A DNA stretch of 54,044 bases from an uncultured bacterium (GTDB lineage: Bacteria > Patescibacteriota > Minisyncoccia > Phycocordibacterales > UBA9973), in contig CAITSA010000027.1 of the NCBI GenBank assembly GCA_903894955.1, forward strand, positions 1-54,044, read 5' to 3'. Below the pieces are notes generated by a model. The model saw nothing but the letters and a program-made list of their open reading frames with translations, was not told the DNA's origin and did no database searches. Both the position numbers and the translations under genes were made by a program. This document shows positions 19,531 through 47,306 of the stretch, one piece after another (the stretch's first letter is position 1; every line of letters starts with the position of its first letter).

Positions 19531-19694
19531 TAGCCTAAACCTTAAGTTTTCTTAGGGCATGGTGAGAATCCCGTGAAGCATAAAGAACTCTTAGTCAGAG
19601 TTCGCCTTCACGGGTCATACTTGGAAACGAGTATGGGTGGTCTAAAAAACCATCAATCTGGCTAAGAGCTTTTTGCGTTTTAGCCTATAAAATC
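19531..19694 (+). promoter_or_regulatory. Candidate structured 5' leader (unclassified)
   Basis: 9-bp helix CCCGTGAAG/CTTCACGGG enclosing AACTCT-TAGTC-AGAGTT. 8-bp helix CATACTTG-GAAA-CGAGTATG with a GNRA tetraloop. Further helices GGTGGT/ACCATC and GGCTAA/TTAGCC. It ends 10 nt before the ATG at 19695. Confidence 0.4.
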
Positions 19695-22853: not shown

Positions 22854-22890
22854 GGGAAAAAACAAACCCCGTCGCTCGCGAGCGACGGGG
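22854..22890 (-). terminator. Intrinsic terminator on the minus strand, upstream of mltG
   Basis: Perfect 24-nt palindrome CCCCGTCGCTCGCGAGCGACGGGG (22867-22890). On the minus strand it is followed by TTTGTTTTTTCCC. Confidence 0.55.
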
Positions 22891-23029
22891 TTTGCGGCAC
22901 TTATGTTGTTTGTCTACGACTACGATAAATGTAAGTCAAAAAATCTCTTGCCCTACACTCACGAGAGTAGTATAGCATATTAAAATAAAAAAGCAACTGT
23001 ACGACAAGAAGAAAAGATGTTATAGTGCA

Positions 23030-23352
23030 AGAGCAGGTATCGGATAACTACTCTTTTATTTGCTTAGGGCTTGCCCTGAGTTTGTCGAGGGGAGGAAAGT
23101 CCGAACACAGATCCCGCCATCGGCGGGAAAAAGTAAAGGGTAATTCCCTTCCATAGCGATATGGAGTTGCGAACAGAAACGACCCGGTTAAGTCCGGCTG
23201 AAACGGCTAAATACTTACTCCTGTGCAAGATCGTGCTCCGACTTTAGGTTGGAGAGAATCGCTTGAGTCCCGCAGTAATGCTGGACCTAGATAAATTGTT
23301 ATCGCTTTGACTTCGGTCAGAGAACAAAATTCGGCTTATAAATACCTGCAAG
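23030..23352 (+). ncRNA. rnpB: RNase P RNA
   Basis: Universally conserved GAGGAAAGTCCGAAC (CR-I) and ACAAAATTCGGCTTAT (CR-V-like). P1 pairing is GCAGGTAT (23033-23040) with ATACCTGC (23342-23349). Multiple GC-rich helices in an AT-rich context. Confidence 0.85.
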
Positions 23353-23360
23353 AAAACGAT

Positions 23361-32600: not shown

Positions 32601-35600
32601 TTCGTTCCGCTTGAAGCTGTATTAGAAGTTACATAAATTGCATAACTGTTCACTGGAGTACCACTGTCTGACATAGATGAGATGTCTAATCCTTTTATGG
32701 TATTTATTACTCCGGTTCCGGTTCCATAGGCTCCCAATTTCGCCAAACTTAAATTAGTAATATTCCCCGTACTCATAACTCCTCCGTAAAATAACATACC
32801 ATACCCATTTGTAATTGTGCCTGTCCCATAGTGATAAAGTGATCCGGCTATTCCTCTCACGCTCCCAGTATAATTTTGCGAACCATATGGGTTTATACCA
32901 AAATTTCCGGCAAAATGATCATACGTATCTGTGCTTAAATTATTGGTTATCTTAACATAGCTTCCGATACCTAGCACCGCGGATGTAGGATTTGTGACAT
33001 CATTATTAACATATAATTTATAAGTCGGCGTCACCGTTCCAATGCCGACGTTGCCTGAACTTAAAATTCTCATTCTCTCTGTCAGCGCCGTATCACCAGT
33101 AGCATTTCTGGTTGAAAATGCTAGATCTCCAATTGTATTTCCAGTTCCATTGGTAAGTAGCCCCTTTATAGCAGCATAACCGATGGAACTTACAGTTTCT
33201 GATTGAGAATTTCCAAAAACTATCGCACCACCCGCACCAGCAGAACCAGAATTTGAATTTATGGCGAGAGTTCCTGTTTTTACTCCCGCATCAGTTAGTG
33301 CAGCAGTTAATTGACCAGCTCCATATATTTCTGTTTGTGCCATAGGCGTCGCCGTCCCAATCCCCACATTCCCACCACTAAAGGTAGCCGCATAATTAGT
33401 CGTACCTCCGGTTGCATTAACTACTAAACCAGTATTGATTGCGGAAGTTCCATTCCAAGTTCCAGTGCTTTCAATATCCATGCCAATTTTGTTAATTGAA
33501 GCAGTACTTGAAGTGTCTGTGACACTGTGAAGGACGCCGGTGTAGGAAGTTGTCTTTGCTGCTGAAGATACTGTGTGAAGTAGAGAGGTTGGAGCGGTTA
33601 TGCCGATGCCAACAGAGCCGGCAGGTGTAAATGTTGCAATATCTATTTGACCTGTATTTTGTCCCTGTGAGGCATCTCCTGTGTATGTTCCTCCACGAAT
33701 TTTAAATCCACTTGAAACTGACGTGCCTGCTATAACACTATCAACATATGAGACAATGTTTGCTCCTTGTCTCCAAGTTGTCCCATCATAATAGAACGAG
33801 GACATTCCTTGACCGACATCATTTGCAACAACAGTAGTTGGCGATGCTTTTGTTCCTCCTGCAACCATAACATTAATCCCTTTTCCGCCATATGCTCCTG
33901 AACCGTAACTTTCAAATAATATTCCTCTATTGTAGCTTGCTGTAGCTTGCGATTGTGAAGCTAAAATATTCAAATTAGCCCCCGGACTCGTCGTTCCGAT
34001 CCCCACATTCCCACCACTAAAGGTAGCCGCATAATTAGTTGTACCTCCGGTAGCATTAACTACTAAACCAGTATTGACTGCAGAAGTTCCATTCCATGTA
34101 CCAGTGCTTTCAATATCCATTCCGATTTTGTTAATTGAAGCAGTGCTTGAAGTATCGGTGACACTGTGAAGGACGCCGGTGTAGGAAGTTGTCTTTGCAG
34201 CTGAAGATACTGTATGGAGTAAAGAGGTTGGAGAGGTTATACCGATGCCGACGGAGCCAGCATTATCAATACGCATTCGTTCAGTTAAGCTTGTCGCACC
34301 ATTAGTATTTGTAAAAAATGTTATGCGACTACCTTGTGCAGTATCAGTCCATGCTTCATCTGTCATAAAGTTAATCTGCGCTCGTGAACCCGAAGAATAA
34401 CCTGTTGTGCCGTATCCAAACATCCCGATAGAGCCAACTTGTGCTCCCGAAGCCAAAGCACTTGGACTTGCTGCCGTGCCAGCCGCTCGTCGAAAATCTA
34501 ATATTCCGATGCCAGAGTAGGTATCTATAACAGCACGGGTTGTTGCCGAGTCAGCTCCAACAAGGTGGAGATAAGTAGTTGCGGGTGGAGCAACGGGTGC
34601 GACCGTATTCGCATTTATTGTCATCAGAGAGTCCGGACTTGTCGTCCCCACCCCCACATTCCCACCTTTGAAATAGACACCCGTCGTGGATGAAGGTCCA
34701 ATCCAAGATTCAGCTAGAGTGGTTAAAGGATTGAGAGAAGTAGAGTTGGTAATACCTCCAGTCATCGTACCTCCAGCGAGCGGTAGGTCTAAAGAAGAAT
34801 GTCCGGTGAGAGAACCAGTAATCGTTCCAGCAGAGAAATTACCAGAAGCGTCACGAGCGACAATGGTGGAAGCAGTGTTAGCATCAGTGGCATCAGTTCC
34901 AAGAGTGACTCCAGTAGAACCGTTGTAAGAAGTTCCAGTCAGATGTGTGCCAAAAGTTAAGGTACTCAAGTTAGAACCGAGAGCGATGCCACTGATGGTG
35001 GAGTTGGCAAGCATTGCATTGGTGATGGAACTATTGGGTAAAGAAACTGTTCCAATAATGGTTAAGCCACCTGTCCCTTGAATAAGTCCGGATCCAGAAT
35101 TAACTCCGACTGCCGTGACCGCTCCTGCCGAAGAAACTTGAAACTGAGAAGTAGCACCGACAGAGAGAGGAGCAGAAGGCGTCGTCGTCCCAACCCCCAC
35201 ATTCCCATCTTTGAAATAGACACCCGTCGTGGATGAAGGTCCAATCCAAGATTCAGCTAGAGTGGTTAAAGGATTGAGAGAAGTAGAGTTGGTAATTCCT
35301 CCGGTCATGGTGCCTCCAGCGAGGGGTAGGTCTAAAGAAGAATGTCCGGTGAGAGAACCAGTAATCGTTCCAGCAGAGAAATTACCAGAAGCATCTCGAG
35401 CGACAATAGTGGAGGCAGTGTTGGCGTCAGTAGCATCAGTTCCAAGAGTGACTCCAGTGGAACCGTTGTAAGAAGTTCCAGTCAGATGTGTGCCAAAAGT
35501 TAAGGTACTCAAGTTAGAACCGAGAGCAATGCCACTGATGGTGGAGTTGGCAAGCATTGCATTGGTGATGGAACTATTGGGTAAAGAAACTGTTCCAGTA

Positions 35601-38446
35601 ATGGTTAAGCCACCAGTGCCTTGGATAAGTCCGGATTCAGAATTTAAACCAACAGCCGTGACTGCTCCAGTAGAAGAAACTTGAAATTGAGAAGTAGCAC
35701 CAACCGAGAGTGGAGCGGAAGGTGAAGTTGTCCCGAAGCCGACGTTGCCATCTTTAAAATAAATTCCAGTAGTGGAAGAAGGTCCAATCCAAGATTCAGC
35801 TAGAGTGGTTAAAGGATTGAGAGAAGTAGAGTTGGTAATTCCTCCGGTCATGGTGCCTCCAGCGAGGGGTAGATCTAAAGAAGCATTTCCGGTTAAAGAA
35901 CCGCTGAAAGTAGCCGCAGTAACAGTACCGCTCCCAGCATTAATAGAATTATTATTTGTTAAAAGTCCCGTCGTCCAAGTACCAGCTATTTCTATACCAG
36001 TTGTTCCAGTACCAGTGTTGTTTAAATAAATACCGTTTTCAGTTACGCCGGTACCAGTATTGGAAAGTGAAAGAAGTTTTTGGGTACCACTTGTAGTGTT
36101 GTTAGTTAAATTACCAGAAAGCAAATTAACATCTGCGCCTATGGAAGTATCGTCAACTGTGTAGCTAGCGTTAAAAGGATAATTAGTATTGAAATAACGC
36201 AAGTCAGAAAGACCAGAATTCCATTGAAGGGTCGCATTACCAGCTCCAAGATTATTTCTATAAAAAATTAAACTTTCTTTCACGTCAGAAGTTTGAGTAG
36301 AACCAATAGTCCAAGAAGTGGAAGAAGTAGCTCCACTGGCCACCACTCCTGCGATATTATTTGCAGTGATTTGGTCAAAGTATCCATTTTTCCAATAATA
36401 AGTTGGTGAACCAATCGTATTGGTATTTGATGTTGCTGAAGTAGTTGGTCGTAATGCTCCTGTGGAGTCAAAAACGATTCGTTGATTAACTCCTGGGTTA
36501 AGATCTAAAACATTTTTTTCTCCGCTTCCTGTTCCTGCTCCACTGACTGCTATTTTTAAACCGGTATAACCACCTCCGGCAGTCGTGGCATCAGTAACGG
36601 TGATGATTTGACCATTACTCATCTCTCCATTCCCTGCATTCGCCGTCAAAGTATTGCCAATCAGAGTTCCATTAGTGATAGCATTATCAGTCACTGAAAA
36701 AATAGTGCCAGTAGGAACAGATGAAGTGATGGATGATGTTCCACTATTTTGTTCGTAATTGGTAACATAGAGATTCGGAATAGTAATGTTGCCAGTACCA
36801 AATGTTACGGGTCTATTGTTCACTGTGTTAATGGAAAGAGTGGAAGCAGAATTTAAATCAATGATTGGATTAAAAGCGGAAATATTCGTACTAACGTTTT
36901 TTAATTCCACCGCTCCAGTGCCAGTACTGAAAGTATTACTACCAGTCACCGTCGTTGCTCCGTTTAAAGAAACTGCTCCGGTACCAGTACTGAAAGTTCC
37001 AATCCCTGTTTGAGAAAAATTAGAATCGTTTTGGATGGTAATTGCTCCGTTAGAAGTCAAACCAGAAGTAGCAGTGACCAATCCAGAAATAATCGGAGTG
37101 GCTGTCCAAGCGGTAGGATTAATTGTCAAAGTGGTAGCTACTTTACCCAAATTGGTAGCAGTGGAATTAACAGTACCAAGATTAAAAATTCCCGCTGAAT
37201 CAATTGCCATAGTTCCAGAGGTATTTGTCTGAATAGTTAAGTCACCTGCTGTATTCGTCCAACCTGACGCTCCGCCAGAAGCAAGATTTAAAATTCCCGT
37301 AGAGTTTCCAATATTGGTGGCTGCAGTTCCGGTAGCATTGATATTAGTTATTCCCGTTTGAGTAAAAGTATTATCAAGAGTGGTCGCTCCGTGAATCGTT
37401 ACCGTATCAGTTCCAGTATCTCCTAAAGTAGTATTACCAATGACAGTTAAAAGTTTTGTGCTGACTGCTTCGTGCAATGCGTCAGAAAGACTTTCGAGAT
37501 TGTTGCTTATAGAATCAAATATTCTGTTAACTTGCTTATTTAAAAAACTATTAGAAATAAAAGAAGATGTGTCAATGTTATTACTGCTACCAGCTGGACC
37601 CATAGGTCCTTGGGAACCTGTAGCTCCTTTAGGACCAGCAGGACCACGCAAGGTAATAATCTTCGCTGGAAGAGAGGAGGAAATCCCCGCCGTATTTTTA
37701 ATTCCAGGTTTAGAGATATAATTTTTAAAAAATGAATTTAGATCAGAGAGGGAGAGAGTGGCTTTGGGTGAAAGATAGTTTTTAAAAGCATTTGCCAAAG
37801 TATCGTAATTGAGGGGAGGATTAACTTCTGATTTAACTAAAATAGCAGACAATAAATTCCCTGGGAAGGAAGCAATTTTTTTAGAAAGAGCAGATAAATT
37901 AAAATTGCTTAAATATGAGATTCCAAGAATGAGAAGAAAAGTGAGAACGAGTTGCGCTCCTTTTCTTCTAATGAAAGAGATTTTTTTACTAGGAATTTTT
38001 GCAATCTCTGGTAGTTGAATTTTATCCGCTAAAACAGGTTCCGGCTCTGGGATTTTTTTATTTATACTATCTGAATCAGACTTAAACTCTAAAAGTGGTT
38101 CTAATTTAAGTGATGAACTATTATATTTAAGAATTGATTCTTCCCCGACGTACCAAACACGACCAACTCTTTTAGAGTCAACTTTATGATCTCTGGCTAG
38201 TTGGCCAATATAGTCTCTGGAGTAGCCCGTCAAGGCGCTAGCTTCCTTGGCAGAAATGTACTTCTTAAAATTATTATATTTAAGAATTGATTCTTCCCCG
38301 ACGTACCAAACACGACCAACTCTTTTAGAGTCAACTTTATTACCCCTTACCAATTGACCAATATAGTCTCTGGAGTAGCCTGTAAGAGCACTGGCCTCCT
38401 TGGCAGAAATATACTTCTTGTTATCAAAAAATAGACTAGGGCTCAT
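29657..38446 (-). CDS. Giant (2,929 aa) membrane-anchored tail-fibre-like surface protein
   Basis: Uninterrupted ORF. In order: two tandem 51-aa excisionase/MerR-like HTH copies, one TM helix (LVLTFLLILGISYL) and 7 collagen-like G-X-Y triplets (GPAGPKGATGSQGPMGPAGSS). Then more than 2,300 aa of G/T/S/N-rich repeats. An S74-like intramolecular chaperone segment follows (SDARLKKNVEDMNYGLSTVMSLRPVLYNWNYE...GFIAQEVEALVPKLV), and the protein ends in a Pro/Thr/Ser tail. Confidence 0.9.
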   Translation of the reverse strand: MSPSLFFDNKKYISAKEASALTGYSRDYIGQLVRGNKVDSKRVGRVWYVGEESILKYNNFKKYISAKEASALTGYSRDYIGQLARDHKVDSKRVGRVWYVGEESILKYNSSSLKLEPLLEFKSDSDSINKKIPEPEPVLADKIQLPEIAKIPSKKISFIRRKGAQLVLTFLLILGISYLSNFNLSALSKKIASFPGNLLSAILVKSEVNPPLNYDTLANAFKNYLSPKATLSLSDLNSFFKNYISKPGIKNTAGISSSLPAKIITLRGPAGPKGATGSQGPMGPAGSSNNIDTSSFISNSFLNKQVNRIFDSISNNLESLSDALHEAVSTKLLTVIGNTTLGDTGTDTVTIHGATTLDNTFTQTGITNINATGTAATNIGNSTGILNLASGGASGWTNTAGDLTIQTNTSGTMAIDSAGIFNLGTVNSTATNLGKVATTLTINPTAWTATPIISGLVTATSGLTSNGAITIQNDSNFSQTGIGTFSTGTGAVSLNGATTVTGSNTFSTGTGAVELKNVSTNISAFNPIIDLNSASTLSINTVNNRPVTFGTGNITIPNLYVTNYEQNSGTSSITSSVPTGTIFSVTDNAITNGTLIGNTLTANAGNGEMSNGQIITVTDATTAGGGYTGLKIAVSGAGTGSGEKNVLDLNPGVNQRIVFDSTGALRPTTSATSNTNTIGSPTYYWKNGYFDQITANNIAGVVASGATSSTSWTIGSTQTSDVKESLIFYRNNLGAGNATLQWNSGLSDLRYFNTNYPFNASYTVDDTSIGADVNLLSGNLTNNTTSGTQKLLSLSNTGTGVTENGIYLNNTGTGTTGIEIAGTWTTGLLTNNNSINAGSGTVTAATFSGSLTGNASLDLPLAGGTMTGGITNSTSLNPLTTLAESWIGPSSTTGIYFKDGNVGFGTTSPSAPLSVGATSQFQVSSTGAVTAVGLNSESGLIQGTGGLTITGTVSLPNSSITNAMLANSTISGIALGSNLSTLTFGTHLTGTSYNGSTGVTLGTDATDANTASTIVARDASGNFSAGTITGSLTGHSSLDLPLAGGTMTGGITNSTSLNPLTTLAESWIGPSSTTGVYFKDGNVGVGTTTPSAPLSVGATSQFQVSSAGAVTAVGVNSGSGLIQGTGGLTIIGTVSLPNSSITNAMLANSTISGIALGSNLSTLTFGTHLTGTSYNGSTGVTLGTDATDANTASTIVARDASGNFSAGTITGSLTGHSSLDLPLAGGTMTGGITNSTSLNPLTTLAESWIGPSSTTGVYFKGGNVGVGTTSPDSLMTINANTVAPVAPPATTYLHLVGADSATTRAVIDTYSGIGILDFRRAAGTAASPSALASGAQVGSIGMFGYGTTGYSSGSRAQINFMTDEAWTDTAQGSRITFFTNTNGATSLTERMRIDNAGSVGIGITSPTSLLHTVSSAAKTTSYTGVLHSVTDTSSTASINKIGMDIESTGTWNGTSAVNTGLVVNATGGTTNYAATFSGGNVGIGTTSPGANLNILASQSQATASYNRGILFESYGSGAYGGKGINVMVAGGTKASPTTVVANDVGQGMSSFYYDGTTWRQGANIVSYVDSVIAGTSVSSGFKIRGGTYTGDASQGQNTGQIDIATFTPAGSVGIGITAPTSLLHTVSSAAKTTSYTGVLHSVTDTSSTASINKIGMDIESTGTWNGTSAINTGLVVNATGGTTNYAATFSGGNVGIGTATPMAQTEIYGAGQLTAALTDAGVKTGTLAINSNSGSAGAGGAIVFGNSQSETVSSIGYAAIKGLLTNGTGNTIGDLAFSTRNATGDTALTERMRILSSGNVGIGTVTPTYKLYVNNDVTNPTSAVLGIGSYVKITNNLSTDTYDHFAGNFGINPYGSQNYTGSVRGIAGSLYHYGTGTITNGYGMLFYGGVMSTGNITNLSLAKLGAYGTGTGVINTIKGLDISSMSDSGTPVNSYAIYVTSNTASSGTNKYGLYIGDISGAATANYALYSSSGTNYFGGNVGIGITAPTSLLHTVSSAAKTTAYTGILHSVTDTSSTASINKIGMDIESTGTWNGTSAVNTGLVVNATGGTTNYAATFSGGNVGIGTTTPSGILHAVNSALTSTAIFERSGQTSNSIFAGVRVLTTKTSDMGDGFGTALAFNIQDDAGVINPIGSIGAVRNGADNTGNLVFYPYNAGSATLAMTINNNGSVGIGTTSPTSLLHTVSSAAKTTAYTGILHNVTDTSSTASINKIGMDIESTGTWNGTSAVNTGLVVNATGGTTNYAATFSGGNVGIGTATPGYKLDVAGAGHFSGNLTLDTGASQSFVGIFSVTGSDSHAIRLYPSLAVGSFNGLTQAGDSALIFTNGSVNTGNLVIGPWGNYGLRITNTGSVGVGVSSPTAYLHLNAGTATASTAPLKFTSGTNLTTAEAGAMEYDGTQLYFSPSTTRNILAQVSGSTALTAGSIPFISTTSGYLTQNNANFFWDNTNNRLGVGTTSPTQMLSVGSSSQFNVTSAGAITATKITSSLTYTTTSGTSMTDNPIIYSNPTAGTSGSYRAGVFQAVQQGSYNNTGNIMGINGQAQHQGTGTLANAYGLNFAVYNAPGAGNTNVLTNAYGVYSFVMNQGTVAGAVISNAYSLYAGGLNNGSGGTVTNTYGVYIESQTAGIQTNSPFGLYQAGASDKNYFAGNVGIGTTSPGAPLEVKGSVTHATIAKFTDASDTTSCTFSSGGLIACSSDARLKKNVEDMNYGLSTVMSLRPVLYNWNYETDGSVKNLGFIAQEVEALVPKLVSTDEEGMKSLNSIGMVPIAIKAIQELNLNLEGVAGTVTPIPGSSSESFVTAFFTNIKIKIGTWLADAGNGIGNVFANVFNAKEKICVDGECLTKDDVHALLLLAHPPSTTSEPVTDQPSAETPAPTEPATPPSTSASAVEPVVETPTPEVTTPSTDSGQTSSLPATSAVIPSTDSTTLTP
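31676..34260. repeat. Four dispersed ~270-nt near-identical coding repeats within the giant gene
   Basis: Protein module (G/S)VGIG(I/T)T(S/A)PTSLLHTVSSAAKTT.YTG(V/I)LH.VTDTSSTASINKIGMDIESTGTWNGTSA(V/I)NTGLVVNATGGTTNYAATFSGGNVGIGT occurs four times. The DNA copies start near 31676, 32247, 33352 and 33985. Confidence 0.8.
34625..35890. repeat. Tandem 543-nt (181-aa) coding repeat, about 2.3 units
   Basis: Shadow ORFs at 34686, 35229 and 35772 are spaced exactly 543 nt apart with near-identical translations. The protein unit is SLDLPLAGGTMTGGITNSTSLNPLTTLAESWIGPSSTTG...GSLTGHS. Confidence 0.85.
38120..38425. repeat. Tandem 153-nt duplication encoding the two N-terminal HTH copies
   Basis: ttaagaattgattcttccccgacgtaccaaacacgaccaactcttttagagtcaacttta occurs twice about 153 nt apart. 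Confidence 0.8.
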
Positions 38447-38820: not shown

Positions 38821-39063
38821 ATGTCTGATCAATTTATTACAATAAAACAAGCCGCTAGTATTCTAGGAGTTTCTCCCCTGACCCTCCGTAATTGGGACAA
38901 GAATGGAAAGTTAAAAGCTTATAGACACCCTATGAATAATTATAGAGTTTACAAAATTGAAGACTTAGAAGCTGTTATCGGAGAGATAAAAAGTGGCACA
39001 GGATACAGAAAAAACGCAAAAAGAGAGTTCAGAAAAATCATTGTAAGGCATCTATCGGATTAA
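38821..39063 (+). CDS. Small MerR/excisionase-type HTH protein
   Basis: 80-aa ORF. ITIKQAASILGVSPLTLRNWDKNGKLKAYRHPMNNYRVYKIEDLEAVI matches the HTH found at the HsdM N-terminus. Confidence 0.7.
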   Translation: MSDQFITIKQAASILGVSPLTLRNWDKNGKLKAYRHPMNNYRVYKIEDLEAVIGEIKSGTGYRKNAKREFRKIIVRHLSD

Positions 39064-39110: not shown

Positions 39111-40487
39111 TTAGCCTAAATATTCTCTTAGGAATTTTTCTTTAAATTCAAAAAAGTTTTCTTCTAAAATTGATTGTCGAATTTTTTTTACTAAGTTAAC
39201 AATAAAATATAAATTGTGAATAGAGGCGAGTGTCCCCGCTAGCATTTCTTTCCCATGAAAAAGATGCGCGATGTATGCCCGAGAATACCCCGAACGAGAG
39301 CCTTCAGCTCCGTACGAGGCAAAATTCTTACAAGTAAAACAACCACACCCTTCATCTAGTGGACCGAAGTCATTTCTGAATTTTGTATTCATGATAATTA
39401 TTTTCCCATTTTTAGTATAAATAGTTCCATTCCTCCCCAACCGCGTCGGAGCCACACAATCAAAAAGATCCACTCCATTTTCAATCCCCATAAATAAATC
39501 TTCCGGTTCTCCAATGCCAAGCAAGTGACGAGGTTTTTCTTCCGGCAAAATTTCATTGACCCATTTTACAGCCGTAGACATATCCTCTTTCGCGAAACTC
39601 CCACCAATACCAAAACCATCAAAATATGTTCCATCTACATTTATTTCTGAAATAATTTTTGCAGATTTTTTCCTCAAACTCTCTTCCCTTCCCCCTTGCA
39701 CGATACCAAATAGCGCGGGAGAAAATTCTCTTTTTTGGGGTGTCTCGCAGGCTGACGAGCCGAGAGGCAGTGCTGGGACAGCAGTCCCAGACAGCGACCC
39801 CAAAGAAGAACCTTTTTCCTCTTCGCCTAATAATTTCTGATGCTCCATCAAACTCCTCTCTGCCCATCTGTGCGTCCTCTCTAATGCTTCTTCTTGATAT
39901 TTTAAATCTTCACTCGGAGAAGTACATTCATCAAAAGCAAAAATTATATCTGCTCCAAGGTTGTGCTGAATTTGAATTGATTTTTCGGGAGTGATGTAAT
40001 GAATAGAACCATCTAAATGTGACTTAAAAGAAACACCGTCTTGTCCAATCTTTGCTAAACGAGGAGCATCACTATCATCAAAACGTTCCGGAATTAACAA
40101 TGATGGATCGGTAATTTTGGAAAGATGAATCAATTTAGAAATATCTTTTCCGAAAGCAGCCCCCAAAGAAAATACTTGGAAACCCCCAGAATCAGTCATG
40201 GTGGGACCTTTCCAGTTCATAAATTTACCAATCCCACCTGCATCACGCACAATTTCATCTCCAGGCTGTAAATACAAATGATAAGTATTGCCAAGCACTA
40301 CTTGGGTACCAGCATCTTTCACCTGTTCAGGATTTAAAGATTTTACCGTAGCCTTGGTTCCGACTGCCACAAAAGCTGGAGTCAAAATATCTCCATGCGG
40401 AGTCTCTAAAACCCCTACCCTGCCCAGATATGTTTTACCGGCTTCGCCTTTGCTATTTGTTAACTTTTTTTGTATTTTAAATTTCAT
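39111..40487 (-). CDS. tgt: tRNA-guanine transglycosylase (queuine tRNA-ribosyltransferase) with two GC-rich in-frame insertions
   Basis: 458-aa ORF with GVLETPHG, TDSGGFQVFSL, GIVQGG and the zinc site CGCFTC...H. It carries the extra segments GSSLGSLSGTAVPALPLGSSACETPQ and ASYGAEGSRSG. Confidence 0.9.
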   Translation of the reverse strand: MKFKIQKKLTNSKGEAGKTYLGRVGVLETPHGDILTPAFVAVGTKATVKSLNPEQVKDAGTQVVLGNTYHLYLQPGDEIVRDAGGIGKFMNWKGPTMTDSGGFQVFSLGAAFGKDISKLIHLSKITDPSLLIPERFDDSDAPRLAKIGQDGVSFKSHLDGSIHYITPEKSIQIQHNLGADIIFAFDECTSPSEDLKYQEEALERTHRWAERSLMEHQKLLGEEEKGSSLGSLSGTAVPALPLGSSACETPQKREFSPALFGIVQGGREESLRKKSAKIISEINVDGTYFDGFGIGGSFAKEDMSTAVKWVNEILPEEKPRHLLGIGEPEDLFMGIENGVDLFDCVAPTRLGRNGTIYTKNGKIIIMNTKFRNDFGPLDEGCGCFTCKNFASYGAEGSRSGYSRAYIAHLFHGKEMLAGTLASIHNLYFIVNLVKKIRQSILEENFFEFKEKFLREYLG

Positions 40488-40554: not shown

Positions 40555-40652
40555 ACAAAGAATTGTTGACCGAACTGTTACCGGACGGTGGCGTGGCTGG
40601 GACAACCAGCATAGGAAACAATCCGAGAAAAAACCCTTCGGGGTTTTTTCTT
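40555..40652 (+). ncRNA. Candidate ~100-nt small RNA (promoter-to-terminator unit without an ORF)
   Basis: Bounded by the promoter above and the terminator below. It has a GC-rich core with hairpin GCTGG-GACAA-CCAGC and is antisense to the tgt upstream region. Confidence 0.3.
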
Positions 40653-40655
40653 TTA
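40626..40655. terminator. Bidirectional intrinsic terminator
   Basis: GAAAAAACCC-TTCG-GGGTTTTTTC, with an A-tract and a T-tract on either side, directly after the DUF3800 gene stop. Confidence 0.7.
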
Positions 40656-41309
40656 TTTAAATTCCCATTCATCGTCAATTTTTTTCTTAATAATATTTCT
40701 ATAAATTTCCACATCCATTTTCAATCCATTTCTAAATTCAAAATATCTTCTTTCACTACCCGCAACCATATCTGCAAGTTGAATCAAAACATTCTCTTTT
40801 GAATCGACAAAACGCAAATTTTGCATAATTTTCTTTTCATCAGAATTTAAGTTTTTTCTTAAATAAGTAGAAAAATTTCTTTTAAAAACTCTATCACCAC
40901 TTCCATCAATTTTTATTGATGCATTTAAAATACAGTTGTTGCTATATTTTAACAACATTTTAATAACATAACTAAAGAAAGAATTTTTGTTGTGCTTTAA
41001 TTCATTACTGTGTATTTTCCTTTTATCAACAATTAAATATCTAATCTTAAAATCAAAAGGGGTAATTGTTCTAAGAAATTTTTCTCTAATTTTTCTTTTT
41101 GAGTTATTAAATTTAAATTCAAAAGCATCAGGAAAATGTTCCTTTCTCCTCATATCTTTTATAGCAACAGCAGTTTTTTCAGCTTCAAGAAAATCATCAA
41201 ATACAACAGCTACTATTATAAAATAAATACTTGAACCTTTTTCAAGCTTAAAACCAGCATCACCAGACTCATCAATAAAAACTAAAGATTGTAAACCTTT
41301 TTTTATCAT
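40653..41309 (-). CDS. DUF3800-family protein
   Basis: 218-aa ORF with N-terminal VFIDESGD and C-terminal LIQLADMVAGS, the two DUF3800 hallmark blocks. Confidence 0.65.
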   Translation of the reverse strand: MIKKGLQSLVFIDESGDAGFKLEKGSSIYFIIVAVVFDDFLEAEKTAVAIKDMRRKEHFPDAFEFKFNNSKRKIREKFLRTITPFDFKIRYLIVDKRKIHSNELKHNKNSFFSYVIKMLLKYSNNCILNASIKIDGSGDRVFKRNFSTYLRKNLNSDEKKIMQNLRFVDSKENVLIQLADMVAGSERRYFEFRNGLKMDVEIYRNIIKKKIDDEWEFK

Positions 41310-41436: not shown

Positions 41437-42267
41437 TTACTGCTCCACTTCGACAAACTTAAGCTCCTGTATGTTCACCAGACTCGTCAATAATACTTTT
41501 TTAACAGGATCTCGAAGGTCAGAAATTGTTACAACAACCTCAGCCAAAACATAAGGATAAATCCCTGGCATTACCACTTGATCTCCTTTTTGCAACGTAA
41601 AATCTCTAGGCAGAATCATTTCAAAATTTCCTCCACCTCGTCCGATTAATTCTAAAAAAACATCACGACCGGCTTGCCCCGCCGAGGCGGAAGACACAAC
41701 TACTTGTGTTTTCTCACCTGCACTAGAAAAGAGAGTTACTTTGGAAGAACTATCATAAGCGAGGCTCACCCGCCCGATCGGTACATTCCCCAGAGCAAAA
41801 ACGATGTCGCCTTCTTTTATTTCTTGTTTTGTGCCCGCATCAATAACGAGCGTATCGTAAATACTTTGATTTGGCTTAGATAAAATAGCCGACAAAACCA
41901 TATTTGCCCTGGAGTCTTTACCTGCCTGCGCAGGCAAGCGATTCAAAATTTCTTTCAGACTAGCATTTTCCGCTACGACAGAATCGTAATTAGAATTTCG
42001 CGCATTATTGAAATCCACCTCTGCCTGTAGTTTTTGATTTTGGTTATAAAGATAATTCTTAGAAAGAAAATACGAACCAATATTTTTAAATTTTTCACCC
42101 ACATTGTTTCCCGCAATTAAAATTGGACGAAAAATTACTTGACTCACACTAGAGAATCCATTGAAAATACCAACTCTAAAATAGAATAAAATAATTAAAA
42201 CAACAACAGAAAATGCAATGTTTAAAAACTTTTTTCTTTTTATTTTTTTATCTAGGAGGTAGCTCAT
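41437..42267 (-). CDS. mreC: Rod shape-determining protein MreC
   Basis: 276-aa ORF with an N-terminal TM segment, a coiled-coil, then beta-rich domains. It lies directly downstream of and overlapping mreB. Confidence 0.85.
   Translation of the reverse strand: MSYLLDKKIKRKKFLNIAFSVVVLIILFYFRVGIFNGFSSVSQVIFRPILIAGNNVGEKFKNIGSYFLSKNYLYNQNQKLQAEVDFNNARNSNYDSVVAENASLKEILNRLPAQAGKDSRANMVLSAILSKPNQSIYDTLVIDAGTKQEIKEGDIVFALGNVPIGRVSLAYDSSSKVTLFSSAGEKTQVVVSSASAGQAGRDVFLELIGRGGGNFEMILPRDFTLQKGDQVVMPGIYPYVLAEVVVTISDLRDPVKKVLLTSLVNIQELKFVEVEQ
41921..41938. repeat. 18-nt GC palindrome copy (CCTGCCTGCGCAGGCAAG) inside mreC
   Basis: Encodes LPAQAG(K) on the minus strand. Confidence 0.85.
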
Positions 42268-43294
42268 CTTGGTTGCCGATCAAAACATCTTTATAAAGTG
42301 GAAGATCAGCTAAAATTACCCCTGTTCCACGAGCCACAGCCGAAAGTGGATCTTCGACGACATAGACTGGAATTTTGAGAACTTTTTGTAAAAGTTGATC
42401 AAGCCCAGGAATTAAAGCTCCTCCCCCAGATAAAGTAATTCCGCGGTGCATTATGTCAGACAAAATTTCGGGTGGGGTCGTCTCCAACATATCTTTTATT
42501 CCTTCTACCAAATCCCTAATAGATAAAGAAAATGCTTCACGAATATCAGAATCGGTAACAACCACTTCCCGCGGGAGTCCAGTCAGAAGATCTCGCCCGT
42601 GAACTTCTGTTTCCATGTACTCTCCAGGGATGACTGAACCAATGGCAATTTTTACCATTTCCGCAGTTCTTTCTCCAATCAATATCTTAAATTCATCGCG
42701 CATGTATGAAATGATATCGTTGTTTAACCTATCACCAGCTATTTTTAAATTTTTTGACTTTACAATTCCACCCAAGGAAATCACAGCGATGTCTGTCGTC
42801 CCACCACCAATATCTATAACCATCGAACCCACTGGATCCTTTATGGGAAGTCTGACTCCGATAGCAGCGGCCATTGGCTCTTCCACTAAGAAAACTTCTC
42901 GGGCACCAGCAGAGCGTGCAGCATCATACACGGCCCGCGTCTCAACATTGGTGGTGCCTGAAGGTACGCCAATCAGCACTCTTGGGCGAGCTAATTTTTT
43001 AGATATTTTATCTGCTTTATTAATTAAATATGAAAGCATTTCTTCGGTTATTTCAAAATCAGAAATAACACCTTCCACTAAAGGACGAACAGCTTTGATG
43101 TGCCCCGGTGTTCGGCCGAGCATTTCTTTCGCCTGTGCACCGACCGCTAAAATTTGGTTCGTCTTAATATTTACCGCTACGACAGATGGTTCATTGATGA
43201 CAATCCCATGACCTTTTAAATACACTAAAGTATTGCTAGTACCCAAGTCGATGCCAATGTCGTTGCTAACTAATTTGTAAAATTTTTCAAACAT
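42248..43294 (-). CDS. mreB: Actin-like rod shape-determining protein MreB
   Basis: 348-aa ORF with IGIDLGTSNTLVY, DIGGGTTD and GITLSGGGA motifs. Confidence 0.95.
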   Translation of the reverse strand: MFEKFYKLVSNDIGIDLGTSNTLVYLKGHGIVINEPSVVAVNIKTNQILAVGAQAKEMLGRTPGHIKAVRPLVEGVISDFEITEEMLSYLINKADKISKKLARPRVLIGVPSGTTNVETRAVYDAARSAGAREVFLVEEPMAAAIGVRLPIKDPVGSMVIDIGGGTTDIAVISLGGIVKSKNLKIAGDRLNNDIISYMRDEFKILIGERTAEMVKIAIGSVIPGEYMETEVHGRDLLTGLPREVVVTDSDIREAFSLSIRDLVEGIKDMLETTPPEILSDIMHRGITLSGGGALIPGLDQLLQKVLKIPVYVVEDPLSAVARGTGVILADLPLYKDVLIGNQDELPPR

Positions 43295-44573
43295 TTTTTA
43301 ATATTTTTATTAATTCATCTTCCGAAACAATCTTTCCTTTTTCTTCTGTGCGTTTTTTCAACTCTATCCCTTTTCCTATCTGCGCAGGCAGGTCTTTCAA
43401 ACTACGCACTGAAACTACCGCCCTCCATGGCATCCCAAGTAAATCTGCATCCGAGAATTTCTCTCCAGCCGATAGACCAATCCGATCATCAAACAAAACT
43501 TCAACTCCAGCCTTTAATAAACTTTCATAAATTTTATCAGCTTCTTTTAAAACTGTTTCGTCATCTCCTAGTGCTAGTAGATGAACAGCAAATGGCGCAA
43601 TAGATTGCGGCCAAACTATACCCTTATCATCAGCCAAGACTTCTACCACTGTTCCCATCAACCTACCAAGTCCTATACCATAACTGCCCATGATTATTAA
43701 CTTTTCTTCCCCTTTTTCATTTTTATATTTTAAATCAAAAGGCGCTGAAAATTTTGTTCCAAGTGAAAAAATATTACCCACTTCTACGGCTCTTTTTTCT
43801 ACTAAATTTTCCTTTTTTAACTGAAGAGATTCTAATACTTCATCAGTATAAACTTCCTTGTTAACAGCAATGGCTTTGTTTTCATCAATATAAATAGTGT
43901 CTTCCCCTGCCCCTGTCAAGGTCTGAAATTCATGTGAAAATTTTGAGAAAGATCCACCTGAAGCAAAAGTCATGTATGTCAAATGCCCGATACCAACCCT
44001 CCCAAAAATACTTTTATACGCTTCTTTAGCTTTTTCGTAAAACATTTCATGTTCTCTCTCATCTTTGGAAAAAGAATAAAGCGCTTTCCAATAAAATTCT
44101 CTTCCCCTTAAAATTCCAGACTTGCTCCTTGTTTCATTTCTAAAAATATTTTTAAAATCATACGGATACAGAGGCAAGTCTTTATAAGAGTTTACATATT
44201 GCTTTAAAATATCAGAATAAGCTTCTTCATTAGTAAAAGATAAACCGACTTCTCCTCCATTTTTTAATTTTGTTTTAAACCAATTATCTACAACTGCATC
44301 ATCCCATCTATTTGATTTTTCCCAAATTTCTTTATTTTGAAGAACAGATGTTCTCATTTCTGTTCCACCAATTTTATCCATCTCTTCTCGAATTATATTT
44401 TCAATTTTTTTAAGAACCTTAAGCCCTAAAGGTAGATAACTATATACGCCGGCCATTTCCTTGTGAATAAAACCTCCACGGATAAGAAGTTCAGCATTTT
44501 TTGATGTCTCATCTGCTGGCATCTCTTTCCGTGTTTTAGTAAAAAGTTTAGATTGTCTCATACTATTAGTCAT
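43287..44573 (-). CDS. proS: Prolyl-tRNA synthetase, short form lacking the INS editing domain
   Basis: 428-aa ORF with an N-terminus typical of bacterial ProRS (MRQSKLFTKTRKE.PADETSKNAELLIRGGFIHK..AGVYSYLPLG). Class II motifs are present, and the length is too short for an INS domain. Confidence 0.88.
   Translation of the reverse strand: MTNSMRQSKLFTKTRKEMPADETSKNAELLIRGGFIHKEMAGVYSYLPLGLKVLKKIENIIREEMDKIGGTEMRTSVLQNKEIWEKSNRWDDAVVDNWFKTKLKNGGEVGLSFTNEEAYSDILKQYVNSYKDLPLYPYDFKNIFRNETRSKSGILRGREFYWKALYSFSKDEREHEMFYEKAKEAYKSIFGRVGIGHLTYMTFASGGSFSKFSHEFQTLTGAGEDTIYIDENKAIAVNKEVYTDEVLESLQLKKENLVEKRAVEVGNIFSLGTKFSAPFDLKYKNEKGEEKLIIMGSYGIGLGRLMGTVVEVLADDKGIVWPQSIAPFAVHLLALGDDETVLKEADKIYESLLKAGVEVLFDDRIGLSAGEKFSDADLLGMPWRAVVSVRSLKDLPAQIGKGIELKKRTEEKGKIVSEDELIKILKNV
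43375..43392. repeat. 18-nt GC palindrome copy (CCTATCTGCGCAGGCAGG) inside proS
   Basis: Encodes LPAQIG(K) on the minus strand. Confidence 0.8.
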
Positions 44574-44676
44574 ACTTGCATCTTACCCGAAAAAAGTCTT
44601 TTTAGCAAAGATAAACCGTCTCAGTAAAATATAAGAAATATTTGCAAAAAGACTCGCTTTCTGCTATATTATTCAT

Positions 44677-45399
44677 ATGCAAAAAGTAGAAAACAAGAAA
44701 GATGTGGATACAATTATAGAGAAAATGTTTAAGGCTGGGGCACATTATGGCTATAGTAAAACCAGAAGGCACCCTTCTGTTTCAAAGTATATATACACCA
44801 CCAAAAACAAGAGCGACATAATTAACCTTGAAAAAACAAGCTTATTATTAGACGAAGCAACTCTATTTATAAAAAATTTAGGAGCCCAAAATAAAGTTAT
44901 TCTTTTTGTTGGCACAAAGCCTGAAGCCAAAGTTGCCATAAAGAACGTAGCTGAATCTTTAAATATGCCTTACGTTGTAGAAAGATGGATTGGTGGAACA
45001 CTTTCAAATTTTACAGAAATAAAAAAGAGAATTACTGAGCTAGAAAATTATCAAAAAGATATAGAAAAAGGTGGACTTGATAAATATACCAAAAAAGAAA
45101 GAGTGGTTATGGCAAAGAAAATGGAAAAATTAGCAAGATATTATACTGGCTTATTAGGTCTAAAAAAGGCGCCAGATGCACTTTTTGTTATAGACGCAAA
45201 AAATGAACACATCGCAACCAACGAAGCTAGAAAATCTGGTATTACCGTAGTTTCTTTGGTAAATTCTGATTCGAACATAAAAGGAATTGATTACCCTATC
45301 ATTGCAAATGATTCAGGAATACCATCTATCAAATTTTTCGCTAACGCTATTATAGATGCTTATAAAGAAGGCCAAAGCTCTACACTAGAAAAAAAATAA
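44677..45399 (+). CDS. rpsB: 30S ribosomal protein S2
   Basis: 240-aa ORF. KAGAHYGYSKTRRHPSVSKYIY and the rpsB-tsf gene order. Confidence 0.95.
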   Translation: MQKVENKKDVDTIIEKMFKAGAHYGYSKTRRHPSVSKYIYTTKNKSDIINLEKTSLLLDEATLFIKNLGAQNKVILFVGTKPEAKVAIKNVAESLNMPYVVERWIGGTLSNFTEIKKRITELENYQKDIEKGGLDKYTKKERVVMAKKMEKLARYYTGLLGLKKAPDALFVIDAKNEHIATNEARKSGITVVSLVNSDSNIKGIDYPIIANDSGIPSIKFFANAIIDAYKEGQSSTLEKK

Positions 45400-45404
45400 T
45401 ATTT

Positions 45405-46202
45405 ATGTCAATTCAAATCACTACAGAGCAAGTAAAAGAGCTCCGAGATGCAACTGGTATTTCAGTGATGCAATGCAAGCGTGCCCTCATTGAGGCTGAA
45501 GGAGATATGAAAAAAGCTCTCGCTATTTTAAAAAAATCAAGCTCAGACATTGCACTTAAAAAAGCTGATAGATCTTTAAATAGTGGCTCAGTCATGATAA
45601 AAACTGAAAACCTGCCTGCGCAGACAGGTAAAAAAGCTGTTTTAGTGGGTTTACTCTGCGAAACCGATTTCGTTGCTAAAAATGAAGACTTTTTAAATTT
45701 ACTGGAAAATCTTCTTAACAAAACCTTAAAAGAAGGAGTAGGAAAAATGAAGGCAGAGGCTAAAGAGCTAATTGACCCCATAATTCAAAAGACTGGCGAA
45801 AATATTCAATTAGGTGATGTATATGAAGTATCTGGAGAAGTATTGGGGATTTATGTGCATAATAATAAATCTGGGGTTATTGTTAGCCTAGAGGGTGGAA
45901 ATGCAGAGCTTGCAAAAGACATTGCGATGCATATAACCGCCATGAAACCAGAATACATAAAAGAAGATGAGATCAGCGAGGATGCCAGAAAAACAATGAA
46001 GGAAGTTTTTGAAAAAGAAGTTGCTAGCGTAGACAAACCTGCAGAAATAAAAGAAAAAATGCTTCTTGGGAAGATGACAACCTACTTCAAAGAAAAAACT
46101 CTAATGAATCAAGCATTTATAAAAAATGGAGAGGAGACAGTCGGAAAACTTTTAGAAAAAGCCGGAGCAAAAATCAAAGAAGTTAAGGTTTGTTCAATAT
46201 AA
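45405..46202 (+). CDS. tsf: Translation elongation factor Ts
   Basis: 265-aa ORF with the N-terminal UBA-like ITTEQVKELRDATGISVMQCKRALIEAEGDMKKAL and CETDFVAKNEDF. Confidence 0.93.
   Translation: MSIQITTEQVKELRDATGISVMQCKRALIEAEGDMKKALAILKKSSSDIALKKADRSLNSGSVMIKTENLPAQTGKKAVLVGLLCETDFVAKNEDFLNLLENLLNKTLKEGVGKMKAEAKELIDPIIQKTGENIQLGDVYEVSGEVLGIYVHNNKSGVIVSLEGGNAELAKDIAMHITAMKPEYIKEDEISEDARKTMKEVFEKEVASVDKPAEIKEKMLLGKMTTYFKEKTLMNQAFIKNGEETVGKLLEKAGAKIKEVKVCSI
45611..45628. repeat. 18-nt GC palindrome copy (CCTGCCTGCGCAGACAGG) inside tsf
   Basis: Encodes LPAQTG(K) on the plus strand. Confidence 0.85.
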
Positions 46203-46624: not shown

Positions 46625-46636
46625 AAAATAACGCTG

Positions 46637-46709
46637 AGCCGGCACGAGGGATCGAACCCCGGACATTTCGCTTACAAAGCGAATGCTCTACCAACTGAGC
46701 TATGCCGGC
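46637..46709 (-). tRNA. tRNA-Thr (anticodon UGU)
   Basis: Manual cloverleaf on the reverse complement: GCCGGCA-TA-GCTC-AGTTGGTA-GAGC-A-TTCGC-TTTGTAA-GCGAA-ATGTC-CGGGG-TTCGATC-CCTCG-TGCCGGC-T. Confidence 0.92.
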
Positions 46710-46827: not shown

Positions 46828-47247
46828 ATGAAAAATTTAAGATTTTGTGCTGGATGTGGAACTCAACTTTTAGTTAGACATAAAATAAAATTTTGTTCAA
46901 ATAAATGCCAGTGCGATTTGGAATATAGGGAAAATGTTGATTTGTGGAAGAAAGGAAAACTAAGCGGTGGAGTTGGAATAACTGCAAGAAATTTATCAAA
47001 CTGGCTTAGAAAATATTTGATTAAAAAATATGATAACAAGTGTTCTGTCTGCGGATGGAACAAAAAACACCCCCTAACGGGTGTGGTCCCACTTGAAGTG
47101 GATCATATCGACGGTAATTCAGAAAATAATAAAGAAGGCAACTTAAGATTATTGTGCCCAAATTGCCACGCATTAACACCTTATTATAAAAATATGAATA
47201 AAGGGAAAGGAAGAAAATGGAGAATGAAAAAATATATTAGAAATTAG
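46828..47247 (+). CDS. HNH endonuclease
   Basis: 139-aa ORF with an N-terminal Cys cluster (CAGCG...C..KC). The HNH core is CSVCGW...LEVDHIDGNSENNKEGNLRLLCPNCHAL. Confidence 0.8.
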   Translation: MKNLRFCAGCGTQLLVRHKIKFCSNKCQCDLEYRENVDLWKKGKLSGGVGITARNLSNWLRKYLIKKYDNKCSVCGWNKKHPLTGVVPLEVDHIDGNSENNKEGNLRLLCPNCHALTPYYKNMNKGKGRKWRMKKYIRN

Positions 47248-47254
47248 AAGCGAA

Positions 47255-47283
47255 GATCCTCAGTTCGAATCTGAGAGGCGGCT
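47255..47283 (+). other. Orphan tRNA 3'-half-like fragment (T arm plus acceptor 3' strand)
   Basis: CTCAG-TTCGAAT-CTGAG followed by AGGCGGC-T. No matching GCCGCCT 5' acceptor strand was found upstream. Confidence 0.4.
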
Positions 47284-47306
47284 CAAAGAATATCTAAATT
47301 TAGCAG

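Follow-up and report, generated by a model that had tools for sequence, protein, structure and literature searches.

The 54,044-nt contig CAITSA010000027.1 of an uncultured bacterium of the Patescibacteria, or candidate phyla radiation (CPR) (assembly GCA_903894955.1; Minisyncoccia, Phycocordibacterales, UBA9973; positions 1 to 54,044 of the forward strand), was analyzed over its full length, which we refer to as the window. Three of its essential genes, mreC, proS, and tsf, each contain one copy of a short GC-rich palindrome in frame (Table 1). The consensus of this element, hereafter the 18-mer, is CCTGCCTGCGCAGGCAGG, i.e., (CCTG)2-CG-(CAGG)2, and can form a 7-bp stem with a GCGC loop. The original prediction, made from the letters of the window, had placed 18-nt palindromes in these three genes, pointed to their high GC content and to their common reading frame on either strand, and proposed a mobile or templated micro-element tolerated in surface loops of essential proteins or, alternatively, a conserved DNA or RNA site. 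The palindromes, their composition, and their shared frame were all confirmed. Searching the window with the consensus and allowing ≤3 mismatches returned exactly these three sites, while 0 of 100 dinucleotide-preserving shuffles of the window contained a match. The 18-mer is conspicuous here because 14 of its 18 nucleotides are G or C against a background of 35% GC, and the copies form a local cluster within 3.7 kb.

Table 1. Positions of the palindrome copies, their host genes, and other features (window coordinates unless a locus handle is given)
Feature	Position	Strand	Description
Palindrome copy 1, in mreC	41921-41938	-	Coding sense CTTGCCTGCGCAGGCAGG; 1 mismatch, synonymous (CTG>TTG); LPAQAG, MreC residues 111-116
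Palindrome copy 2, in proS	43375-43392	-	Coding sense CCTGCCTGCGCAGATAGG; 2 mismatches (GCA>ATA); LPAQIG, residues 391-396 from the MRQSK start
Palindrome copy 3, in tsf	45611-45628	+	CCTGCCTGCGCAGACAGG; 1 mismatch (GCA>ACA); LPAQTG, EF-Ts residues 70-75
mreC	41437-42267	-	276 aa; PF04085 and homology
proS	43287-44573	-	Class II prolyl-tRNA synthetase (ProRS); PF00587, PF03129, and homology; homologs begin at MRQSK (position 44561)
tsf	45405-46202	+	EF-Ts, 265 aa; PF00889 and homology
Second mreC insert	41668-41688	-	21 nt in frame, GCC TCG GCG GGG CAA GCC GGT, ASAGQAG; absent from L001 and L002
Additional mreC palindrome	41679-41690		CCGCCGAGGCGG (CCGCC-GA-GGCGG)
tgt inserts	39726-39812 and 39288-39323	-	GC-rich, in frame
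18-nt hairpin in tgt insert	39773-39790		CTGGGACAGCAGTCCCAG
DUF3800 gene	40653-41309
DUF3800-IX RNA motif	40560-40628
tRNA-Thr	46636-46709
HNH endonuclease ORF	Within 46828-47290		139 aa; PF01844
Orphan tRNA 3' fragment	~47250-47285		T-arm and acceptor
RNase P RNA, class A	23032-23354	+	93 bits, E = 7e-29
Perfect 32-nt palindrome	22863-22894		CAAACCCCGTCGCTCGCGAGCGACGGGGTTTG
Giant ORF	29657-38446	-	2,929 aa; GC 41-47%
MerR/HTH_17 gene	38821-39063
SAM riboswitch	18886-18992
LOOT RNA	19532-19654
Nested copy in tsf	L124:6160-6200		Nomurabacteria-type contig
Units with palindrome-bearing tRNA-Gln fragments	L030:1735-2105; L040:3540; L045:372-487; L113
Unit with palindrome-bearing tRNA-Thr fragment	L097:6021-6136
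Unit with palindrome-bearing tRNA fragment	L123:538-672
Unit with palindrome-bearing tRNA-Lys fragment	L184:515-830		20-nt variant

We compared the three sites with those in syntenic relatives (L001 and L002/L003). L001 has the same gene order and ~88% nucleotide identity across mreC-tsf, and all three of its sites are empty. Codon-level alignment placed the empty-site junctions in L001 at CG^T in mreC, GA^A in proS, and AA^T in tsf. In mreC, the relatives have CGT followed by AAA (CGT or AGA before AAA in L001/L002), where the window reads CG-[CTTGCCTGCGCAGGCAGG]-T AAA; in proS, GAA followed by AAA corresponds to GA-[CCTGCCTGCGCAGATAGG]-A AAA; and in tsf, AAY followed by AAA corresponds to AA-[CCTGCCTGCGCAGACAGG]-T AAA. 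Every window copy thus adds exactly 18 bp between the second and third bases of a codon, with no target-site duplication. Because the junctions are exact and unduplicated, each insert consists of the 18-bp palindrome alone. The host residues at the empty junctions are R and K in MreC, E and K in ProRS, and N-K-K in EF-Ts. The predicted motif LPAQxGK therefore holds for LPAQxG only, as the Lys is a host residue present in the empty alleles. Most EF-Ts homologs are 259 aa long versus 265 aa in the window, the site is empty in ProRS homologs at 93-95% identity, and the nearest homologs of the window proteins (86-95% identity) are empty, as are most of the 120 best homologs examined per protein. 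An alignment of the 80-nt flanks of the three copies gave no similarity outside the palindrome, and a longer element was rejected. Import of the mreC-tsf block by recombination was also rejected, since its 88% identity to L001 compares with 80-89% in neighboring syntenic blocks. A search against Rfam returned nothing at the three copies. EF-Ts homologs and two RNA motifs of the window, LOOT and DUF3800-IX, assign the contig to Paceibacteria/Patescibacteria.

To place the three copies in a wider context, contigs from one genome per species were scanned for the perfect 18-mer, and at least 120 other genome stretches matched. Among the matches listed, ~71 of 120 are labeled Patescibacteria from many classes, including WWE3, Microgenomates, Saccharibacteria, Paceibacteria, Dojkabacteria, and Gottesman-, Woese-, Kaiser-, and Uhrbacteria, and 77 of the 120 loci have a GC content of <0.45; the others listed include Bacteroidota metagenome-assembled genomes (MAGs), in which several copies are intergenic, and a smaller number of GC-rich genomes. 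The copies lie in unrelated proteins, spacers, and tRNA fragments. Almost all of the 77 open reading frames (ORFs) of ≥100 aa that contain the element in the LPAQAG frame encode nonhomologous proteins. Some 11 further copies with ≤2 mismatches were found in ~934 kb of DNA flanking the matches, which gives a low density of ~1 per 85 kb. Clustering of all ORFs of ≥80 aa from these 934 kb of loci and the window yielded housekeeping families only, with no enrichment; no Y1 transposase turned up in this clustering, which included no search aimed at Y1. The possibility that the 18-mer represents the split ends of a larger insertion sequence (IS) was rejected because a half-site search gave loop variants only and no ends around a transposase. 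Viral contigs carry the 18-mer and its 20-nt variant mostly in GC-rich sequence and in other contexts and were uninformative for CPR except for L184. In the literature searched, we found no description of the 18-mer sequence, its peptide, or such inserts in Patescibacteria.

Some low-GC Bacteroidota MAGs carry several perfect copies, all of which are intergenic and lie inside longer repeated flanks (L015, L036, L074, L080, L086, and L105 from the Sphingobacteriales MAG JAAFJW01; L007 and L046 from Saprospiraceae; L108 and L115). Some of these copies extend the palindrome to GCGTGTTA-[18-mer]-TAACACGC, and some are followed by a terminator-like T-run. Based on these intergenic copies, the 18-mer is not strictly confined to CPR. 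At L068:1669 (Rhodanobacter) and in L150 (viral set), i.e., in GC-rich Proteobacteria and a viral contig, the core lies within CGTCATTCC...GGAATGACG-type arms resembling CGTC-tagged REP/NTS repeats.

These counts also bear on the explanation that the palindromes arose by chance, by convergence at the protein level, or as an assembly or library artifact. The shortness of the motif is all that speaks for it. Besides the empty shuffles, the DNA itself and not the peptide alone is identical between loci, and the motif recurs, always with a bias in taxon and frame, in assemblies from many laboratories and methods. As a composition control for chance-type matches, we used CTGGGACAGCAGTCCCAG, a different 18-nt hairpin in the window (in tgt; see below). 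It matched only GC-rich contigs (50 metagenome matches; GC 0.47-0.70), unlike the 18-mer, and was on this basis rejected as a second repeat family. We consider this explanation effectively refuted.

Because 18 is a multiple of 3 and the 18-mer has no stop codon in any frame, inserting it would leave every reading frame intact, and the insert would be translated. The frame is far from random: among the longest ORFs at low-GC loci, 43 read LPAQAG, 12 read PACAGR, and 5 read CLRRQ (chi-square P = 1e-9). The suggestion that the element always encodes LPAQxG is therefore true of the three window copies and not of every copy elsewhere. The minority frame PACAGR occurs in real proteins, including TruB, ribosomal protein L15, PheT, Obg, UvrC, and glutamate dehydrogenase. 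About one third of the low-GC loci (36) have no ORF of ≥120 aa around the copy, and an Rfam search of the 36 noncoding loci identified neighboring tRNAs only. In 38 of 49 cases, the residue preceding LPAQAG is Asp, Gly, or Asn, and the base 3' of inserts in this frame is a pyrimidine in 80%; the split codon is thus mostly GAY, GGY, or AAY. With both strands pooled, a purine is found at -1 in 83% of coding flanks and 74% of noncoding flanks (P = 8e-5), together with a weak G at -2 and a weak A at -3. The presence of this purine in both types of flanks supports a DNA-level R^Y preference in addition to filtering at the protein level. We also considered insertion into preexisting hairpins. This was rejected, as reconstructed empty sites were not significantly more structured and the junction was in a loop no more often than at random sites (P = 0.12-0.13).

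In the AlphaFold model of EF-Ts (predicted local distance difference test [pLDDT] score of 89), LPAQTG is at the tip of the β-hairpin formed by strands 60-69 and 76-85 and coincides with a local dip in confidence; in the alignment to E. coli EF-Ts (1EFU), the insert is a gap. The ProRS model is confident in the C-terminal anticodon-binding domain only, and there LPAQIG forms a coil between helix 385-389 and strand 399-402, again with a dip in pLDDT. The ProRS alignment to a solved structure stops at residue 390, one residue before the insert. In MreC, the insert (site 1) is in the linker joining the coiled coil and the β-domain. The predicted surface-loop placement thus agrees with the models of EF-Ts and ProRS and with the gap relative to 1EFU. 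As RNA, the consensus 18-mer folds at -11 kcal/mol. The mreC copy retains its hairpin by means of a G·U pair (-13.9 kcal/mol), the tsf hairpin is weakened, and the proS copy folds no better than shuffles (z = 0.2), its hairpin being essentially lost. The window offers no evidence that the hairpin is maintained after insertion.

Among the 120 best homologs of each protein, the codon that is filled in the window is occupied by a hairpin-type insert in 16 EF-Ts homologs and in 15 MreC homologs, plus one MreC homolog with an unrelated 5-aa insert (NVNVQ). At the ProRS codon, 11 of 120 homologs have inserts of ≥5 aa and six more have inserts of 3-4 aa (LSS/LKSE). Carriers consequently make up about 9-13% of the homologs at these three sites. 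In single-protein neighbor-joining trees, which give rough counts of gains, at least 14 state changes are required for 16 MreC carriers and at least 8 for 11 ProRS carriers, both with an empty root by parsimony, while EF-Ts carriers occur at at least 8 separate places. The MreC carriers from the window, L238, and L239 share the junction, and each has one different single-base change (T7>C in L238 and A16>G in L239); their flanks are ~36% divergent, and the inserts keep GC-rich codons against AT pressure. At the proS codon, other lineages have a decayed, AT-drifted insert (TTG CCA GCC GAA GCA GGA), and decayed ProRS inserts read LPAGAG, LPAEAG, LSAGAG, or LPEGVT. The coexistence of near-consensus and decayed copies indicates that young and old copies are found at the same sites. 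The recurrence at the same codon may reflect targeting of the insertion, repeated gains with precise losses, or the transfer of alleles.

The decayed versions, which are also numerous at a second MreC site (site 2; see below), would fit a scenario in which the inserts are ancient, having been present in the ancestor of this Paceibacteria group, so that the patchy distribution results from many precise deletions of an unstable palindrome and the window copies are survivors. Palindromes are prone to deletion, and the unusual sequence LPTGQAG is found in two EF-Ts lineages (P0007 and P0009) parted by empty relatives. However, this scenario would require exact loss many times in the absence of flanking direct repeats, and it does not readily agree with the empty roots of MreC and ProRS or with the empty sites of the closest homologs. 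Nor does it account for near-consensus copies with private single changes in the divergent MreC genes or for different subfamilies at one codon, one 18 nt long with a TGCGCA center and the other 21 nt long with a CCGG center. We therefore regard it as quite unlikely.

These CCGG-type variants retain the CCTGCC(T)/(A)GGCAGG arms. They are 20 nt long as a perfect palindrome, which is found only in noncoding copies or copies in GC-rich contigs, and 21 nt long inside genes, where they encode LPAGKAG, LPAGEAG, LPTGQAG, or LPVGKAG. A copy within a copy is present in tsf of L124, which reads CCTGCCT[CCTGCCCGCGCAGGCGGG]GCGCAGGCAGG. Here, a second, slightly different 18-mer is located in the loop edge of the first, and the pair jointly encodes LPPARAGGAQAG. 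L041 has two tRNA-Gln genes in tandem, the second of which is interrupted by the palindrome after nucleotide 10, and removing exactly 18 nt restores the ARAGORN prediction of tRNA-Gln. Orphan 5' fragments of tRNAs with the palindrome in the D-arm recur in different CPR genomes (Table 1), where the corresponding intact tRNA lies a short way downstream or nearby.

Copies inside tRNA sequences, where function would need removal of the insert, raise the possibility that the 18 nt are lost from the RNA by intron-like excision or skipped by translational bypass, leaving the proteins unchanged. GC-rich hairpin inserts can be bypassed in AT-rich mitochondrial genes, as in the byp elements of Magnusiomyces. 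This possibility is highly improbable for the inserts described here. The strong frame bias and the preference for codons of turn residues are not expected of untranslated sequence, mutated copies that do not fold remain in frame, and in-gene variants are 18 or 21 nt long while the 20-nt palindrome is restricted as described above. Moreover, the tRNA copies are in duplicated or orphan fragments beside an intact tRNA.

Altogether, we favor, with a probability of roughly 0.6, the reading that the window sequences are copies of a nonautonomous palindromic micro-element that is translated through and filtered by selection. The empty sites, the counts in other genomes, and the structure models all support this part of the original prediction, and movement is suggested at the sequence level by filled and empty sites, the nested copy, and the disrupted tRNA. 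According to this reading, the element would be dispersed at low copy number through CPR genomes and would insert by a sequence-specific trans-acting mechanism, involving either a hairpin-recognizing enzyme or a template. Selection would keep mainly those copies that read LPAQAG and, in a surface loop, split the codon of a turn residue (Asp, Gly, or Asn). Point mutations would erode the copies that are kept, and the 1-2 mismatches and the weakened hairpins in the window may be examples of this. The permissive codons of MreC, ProRS, and EF-Ts would be refilled across lineages owing to a strong site preference, repeated gain and precise loss, or both.

Several observations weigh against this reading. 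No transposase-like or other partner gene was found, and no family was enriched near copies in the 934 kb of loci. We know of no characterized transposition chemistry for an 18-bp unit that lacks a target duplication and further terminal repeats. For a repeat that proliferates, ~1 extra copy in 85 kb of flank is an unusually low density. The weak consensus of the flanks, AGR^YRAA, occurs far too often to specify sites, and reconstructed empty sites are not significantly hairpin-like. Near-random insertion followed by selection does not easily account for the filling of one and the same codon in many lineages, and the numbers of gains are rough, being derived from single-protein trees. Finally, selection acting on the sequence itself could also have kept the 18-mer nearly identical between very deep CPR lineages.

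Genes for endonucleases are found next to some of the tRNA copies. In L030, L113, and L184, the tRNA fragment with the palindrome is followed directly by a single-domain GIY-YIG (PF01541) ORF of 81-88 aa. A GIY-YIG ORF is just upstream of the tRNA-Gln pair in L041, and in L040 an HNH gene follows the unit of tRNA fragment and palindrome. The combination of tRNA fragment, palindrome, and GIY-YIG or HNH gene looks like a homing cassette targeting tRNA genes. Using jackhmmer, we identified GIY-YIG ORFs in ~9 of the 120 blocks, mostly not adjoining the palindrome, and none in the window.

The GIY-YIG genes bear on the alternative of a conserved DNA or RNA site that was already part of the original prediction. 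In this case, the 18-mer would be a functional cis-site under selection, either the binding or cleavage site of a conserved CPR protein, e.g., an Ssn-type GIY-YIG single-stranded DNA (ssDNA) nuclease modulating transformation, or an uptake or recombination signal. Scarce intergenic space would force such sites into coding loops, and filled alleles would spread via DNA uptake and recombination. CPR bacteria rely on taking up DNA, very deep lineages share an almost invariant 18-mer with its GC-rich codons kept against AT pressure, identical codons are filled in many lineages, and GIY-YIG ORFs adjoin the tRNA copies in L030, L113, and L184 and lie near the one in L041. A precedent is provided by Ssn GIY-YIG nucleases acting on GC-rich hairpin repeats (PMC11893778). 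Still, 0 of 133 copies match the published SRM motif, HGTCWYN(0-2)YYVSBRHN(0-5)WNVSBRGN(0-2)RNCYNB (PMC11893778), and membership of the SRM repeats was rejected. CGTC and GTAG tags are at chance level, the nuclease gene in L040 is of the HNH and not the GIY-YIG type, and GIY-YIG ORFs are as rare and mostly nonadjacent as described above. The copy density is roughly 100-fold below that of known uptake sequences or NTS, and two of the three window copies persist with their hairpin mostly lost. Because such a site cannot arise by point mutation in DNA of 35% GC, this explanation would still need an insertion mechanism. We regard it as unlikely.

More tentatively, the micro-element may belong to a Patescibacteria-wide palindrome-insertion system, a possibility that we rate below even. 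A conserved sequence-specific enzyme or template would insert the 18-bp hairpin at R^Y steps of DNA that is single-stranded or transcribed, and no known mobile DNA unit would be smaller. Insertion would leave the target unduplicated, loss would be precise, and the same loop codons of essential genes as well as the tRNA D-arm would be hit repeatedly. Such a system could be coupled to GIY-YIG/HNH homing cassettes and natural transformation.

The 18-mer fits no described repeat family among Rickettsia palindromic elements (RPEs), repetitive extragenic palindromes (REPs), SRM/NTS repeats, and the miniature transposable elements with inverted repeats (MITEs). The closest parallels are informative in what they share and where they differ. 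RPEs were reportedly described by Ogata et al. in 2000 and 2002. Like the 18-mer, they are palindromic selfish repeats of small AT-rich genomes that are inserted in frame in essential genes and in noncoding DNA, translated, exposed on the protein surface, and patchily distributed among relatives. RPEs, however, are ~100-150 bp long, form families RPE-1 to RPE-8 with tens of copies, and belong to Rickettsia/Wolbachia relatives, whereas the 18-mer is 18 bp long (20-21 bp in its variants), ranges over an entire superphylum, and does not resemble RPEs in sequence. Hence, it shares with RPEs the in-frame translated palindromic insert and neither the length nor the Rickettsiales families. RPEs are mentioned in PMC1458961 and PMC10969869.

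REPs and REPINs depend on RAYT (Y1 HUH) transposases and are related in this respect to the "peel-and-paste" elements IS200/IS605 (PMC3733652; PMC3184786). REPs resemble the 18-mer as short GC-rich hairpin repeats dependent on a trans-acting enzyme, but they are extragenic, number in the hundreds, and are tagged with GTAG or CGTC. The 18-mer has few copies, ~2/3 of which are inside ORFs of ≥120 aa, and GTAG and CGTC were found within 8 nt of only 4 and 6 of 125 copies, respectively. As in IS200/IS605, which insert with no target duplication and excise precisely, the filled and empty junctions of the 18-mer are clean: no target duplication was observed at three genes and one tRNA, and the consensus forms a stable hairpin at the energy given above. 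The difference is that IS200/IS605 insert 3' of a fixed 4-5-nt target, while the 18-mer shows only a preference for a purine at -1. The single-domain GIY-YIG nucleases of the Ssn type modulate transformation and act on GC-rich hairpin NTS/SRM repeats, which they bind and cut in the form of ssDNA (Chenal et al. 2025, PMC11893778). NTS/SRM repeats share with the 18-mer that they are GC-rich dispersed hairpins, and a few 18-mer copies are beside GIY-YIG genes in hosts that rely on DNA uptake. In contrast to the 18-mer, NTS are ~30 bp long, asymmetric, and extragenic, with hundreds of copies. NTS/SRM repeats flank genes of the Ssn family (cd10448); adjacency of GIY-YIG (PF01541) genes to the 18-mer amounts to 3-4 cases, and most copies have no neighbor of this kind. 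MITEs have palindromic ends in common with the 18-mer but are 50-500 bp long and consist of terminal inverted repeats around an internal segment, flanked by a target-site duplication; the 18-mer has neither the segment nor the duplication.

Outside bacteria, yeast mitochondria contain mobile GC clusters and Neurospora mitochondria contain 18-nt PstI palindromes. These are also short GC-rich palindromes of AT-rich genomes that are optional between strains, adjoin tRNA genes, and are occasionally in frame. They differ from the 18-mer in being organellar, mostly intergenic, and of other sequence, and GC clusters are 30-50 bp long, often with short duplications of the target. DNA uptake sequences (DUS) of Neisseriaceae and uptake signal sequences (USS) of Pasteurellaceae are 9-12 nt long, arise by point mutation, and occur at ~1 per kb. 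They resemble the 18-mer as fixed, short, clade-conserved motifs within genes, in preferred frames and at tolerant protein positions. The 18-mer, by comparison, is an 18-bp insertion found roughly once per 10^5 bp, with 3 copies in the 54-kb window. Mitochondrial GC clusters and PstI palindromes are treated in two reviews (PMC8811140 and PMC5726470).

If the micro-element is what we propose, selfish DNA within protein genes, known mainly from the RPEs of Rickettsia and from fungal mitochondria, would reach the vast CPR radiation, and its size limit would drop to 18 bp, where known transposition chemistry does not apply. The element would account for small GC-rich insertions that enlarge and diversify minimal CPR proteins, give population genomics a marker for recent gains and losses, and provide a natural catalog of insertion-tolerant loops in essential proteins. 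Its partner, be it a nuclease, an integrase, or a template, could represent a new DNA-manipulating activity, and the recurrence of identical codons would pose a testable question between targeted integration and allele spread by DNA uptake.

The additional palindrome that had been noted in mreC is real and was placed within a second, 21-nt insert in this gene, for which RNA folding indicates no significant fold left. This insert is probably an older, decayed hairpin-type insert. About 40 of the 120 MreC homologs have varied inserts of 5-20 aa at this codon (site 2), among them xxAGQAG and SPTGEAG. The tgt gene contains two further in-frame inserts rich in GC, which relatives lack or have in different form; one of the two holds the hairpin that we used as a control. 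A DUF3800 gene with its DUF3800-IX RNA motif is inserted between tgt and mreC in the window; it is missing from L001, in which tgt abuts mreC.

Downstream of tsf, an HNH endonuclease ORF adjoins tRNA-Thr and is followed by the orphan 3' fragment of a tRNA; this whole cassette is absent from L001. RNase P RNA explains the GC-rich hairpins near 23.1-23.3 kb and is missed by a default Rfam scan because its score is under the gathering score of 100. In the spacer upstream of it, there is a perfect 32-nt palindrome that is unrelated to the 18-mer and is probably a bidirectional terminator. The giant ORF has a GC content above that of its surroundings and adjoins a small MerR/HTH_17 gene; its N-terminal excisionase-like HTH segment is duplicated, and it contains long internal repeats. 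Lastly, a SAM riboswitch and a LOOT RNA are <700 nt apart.

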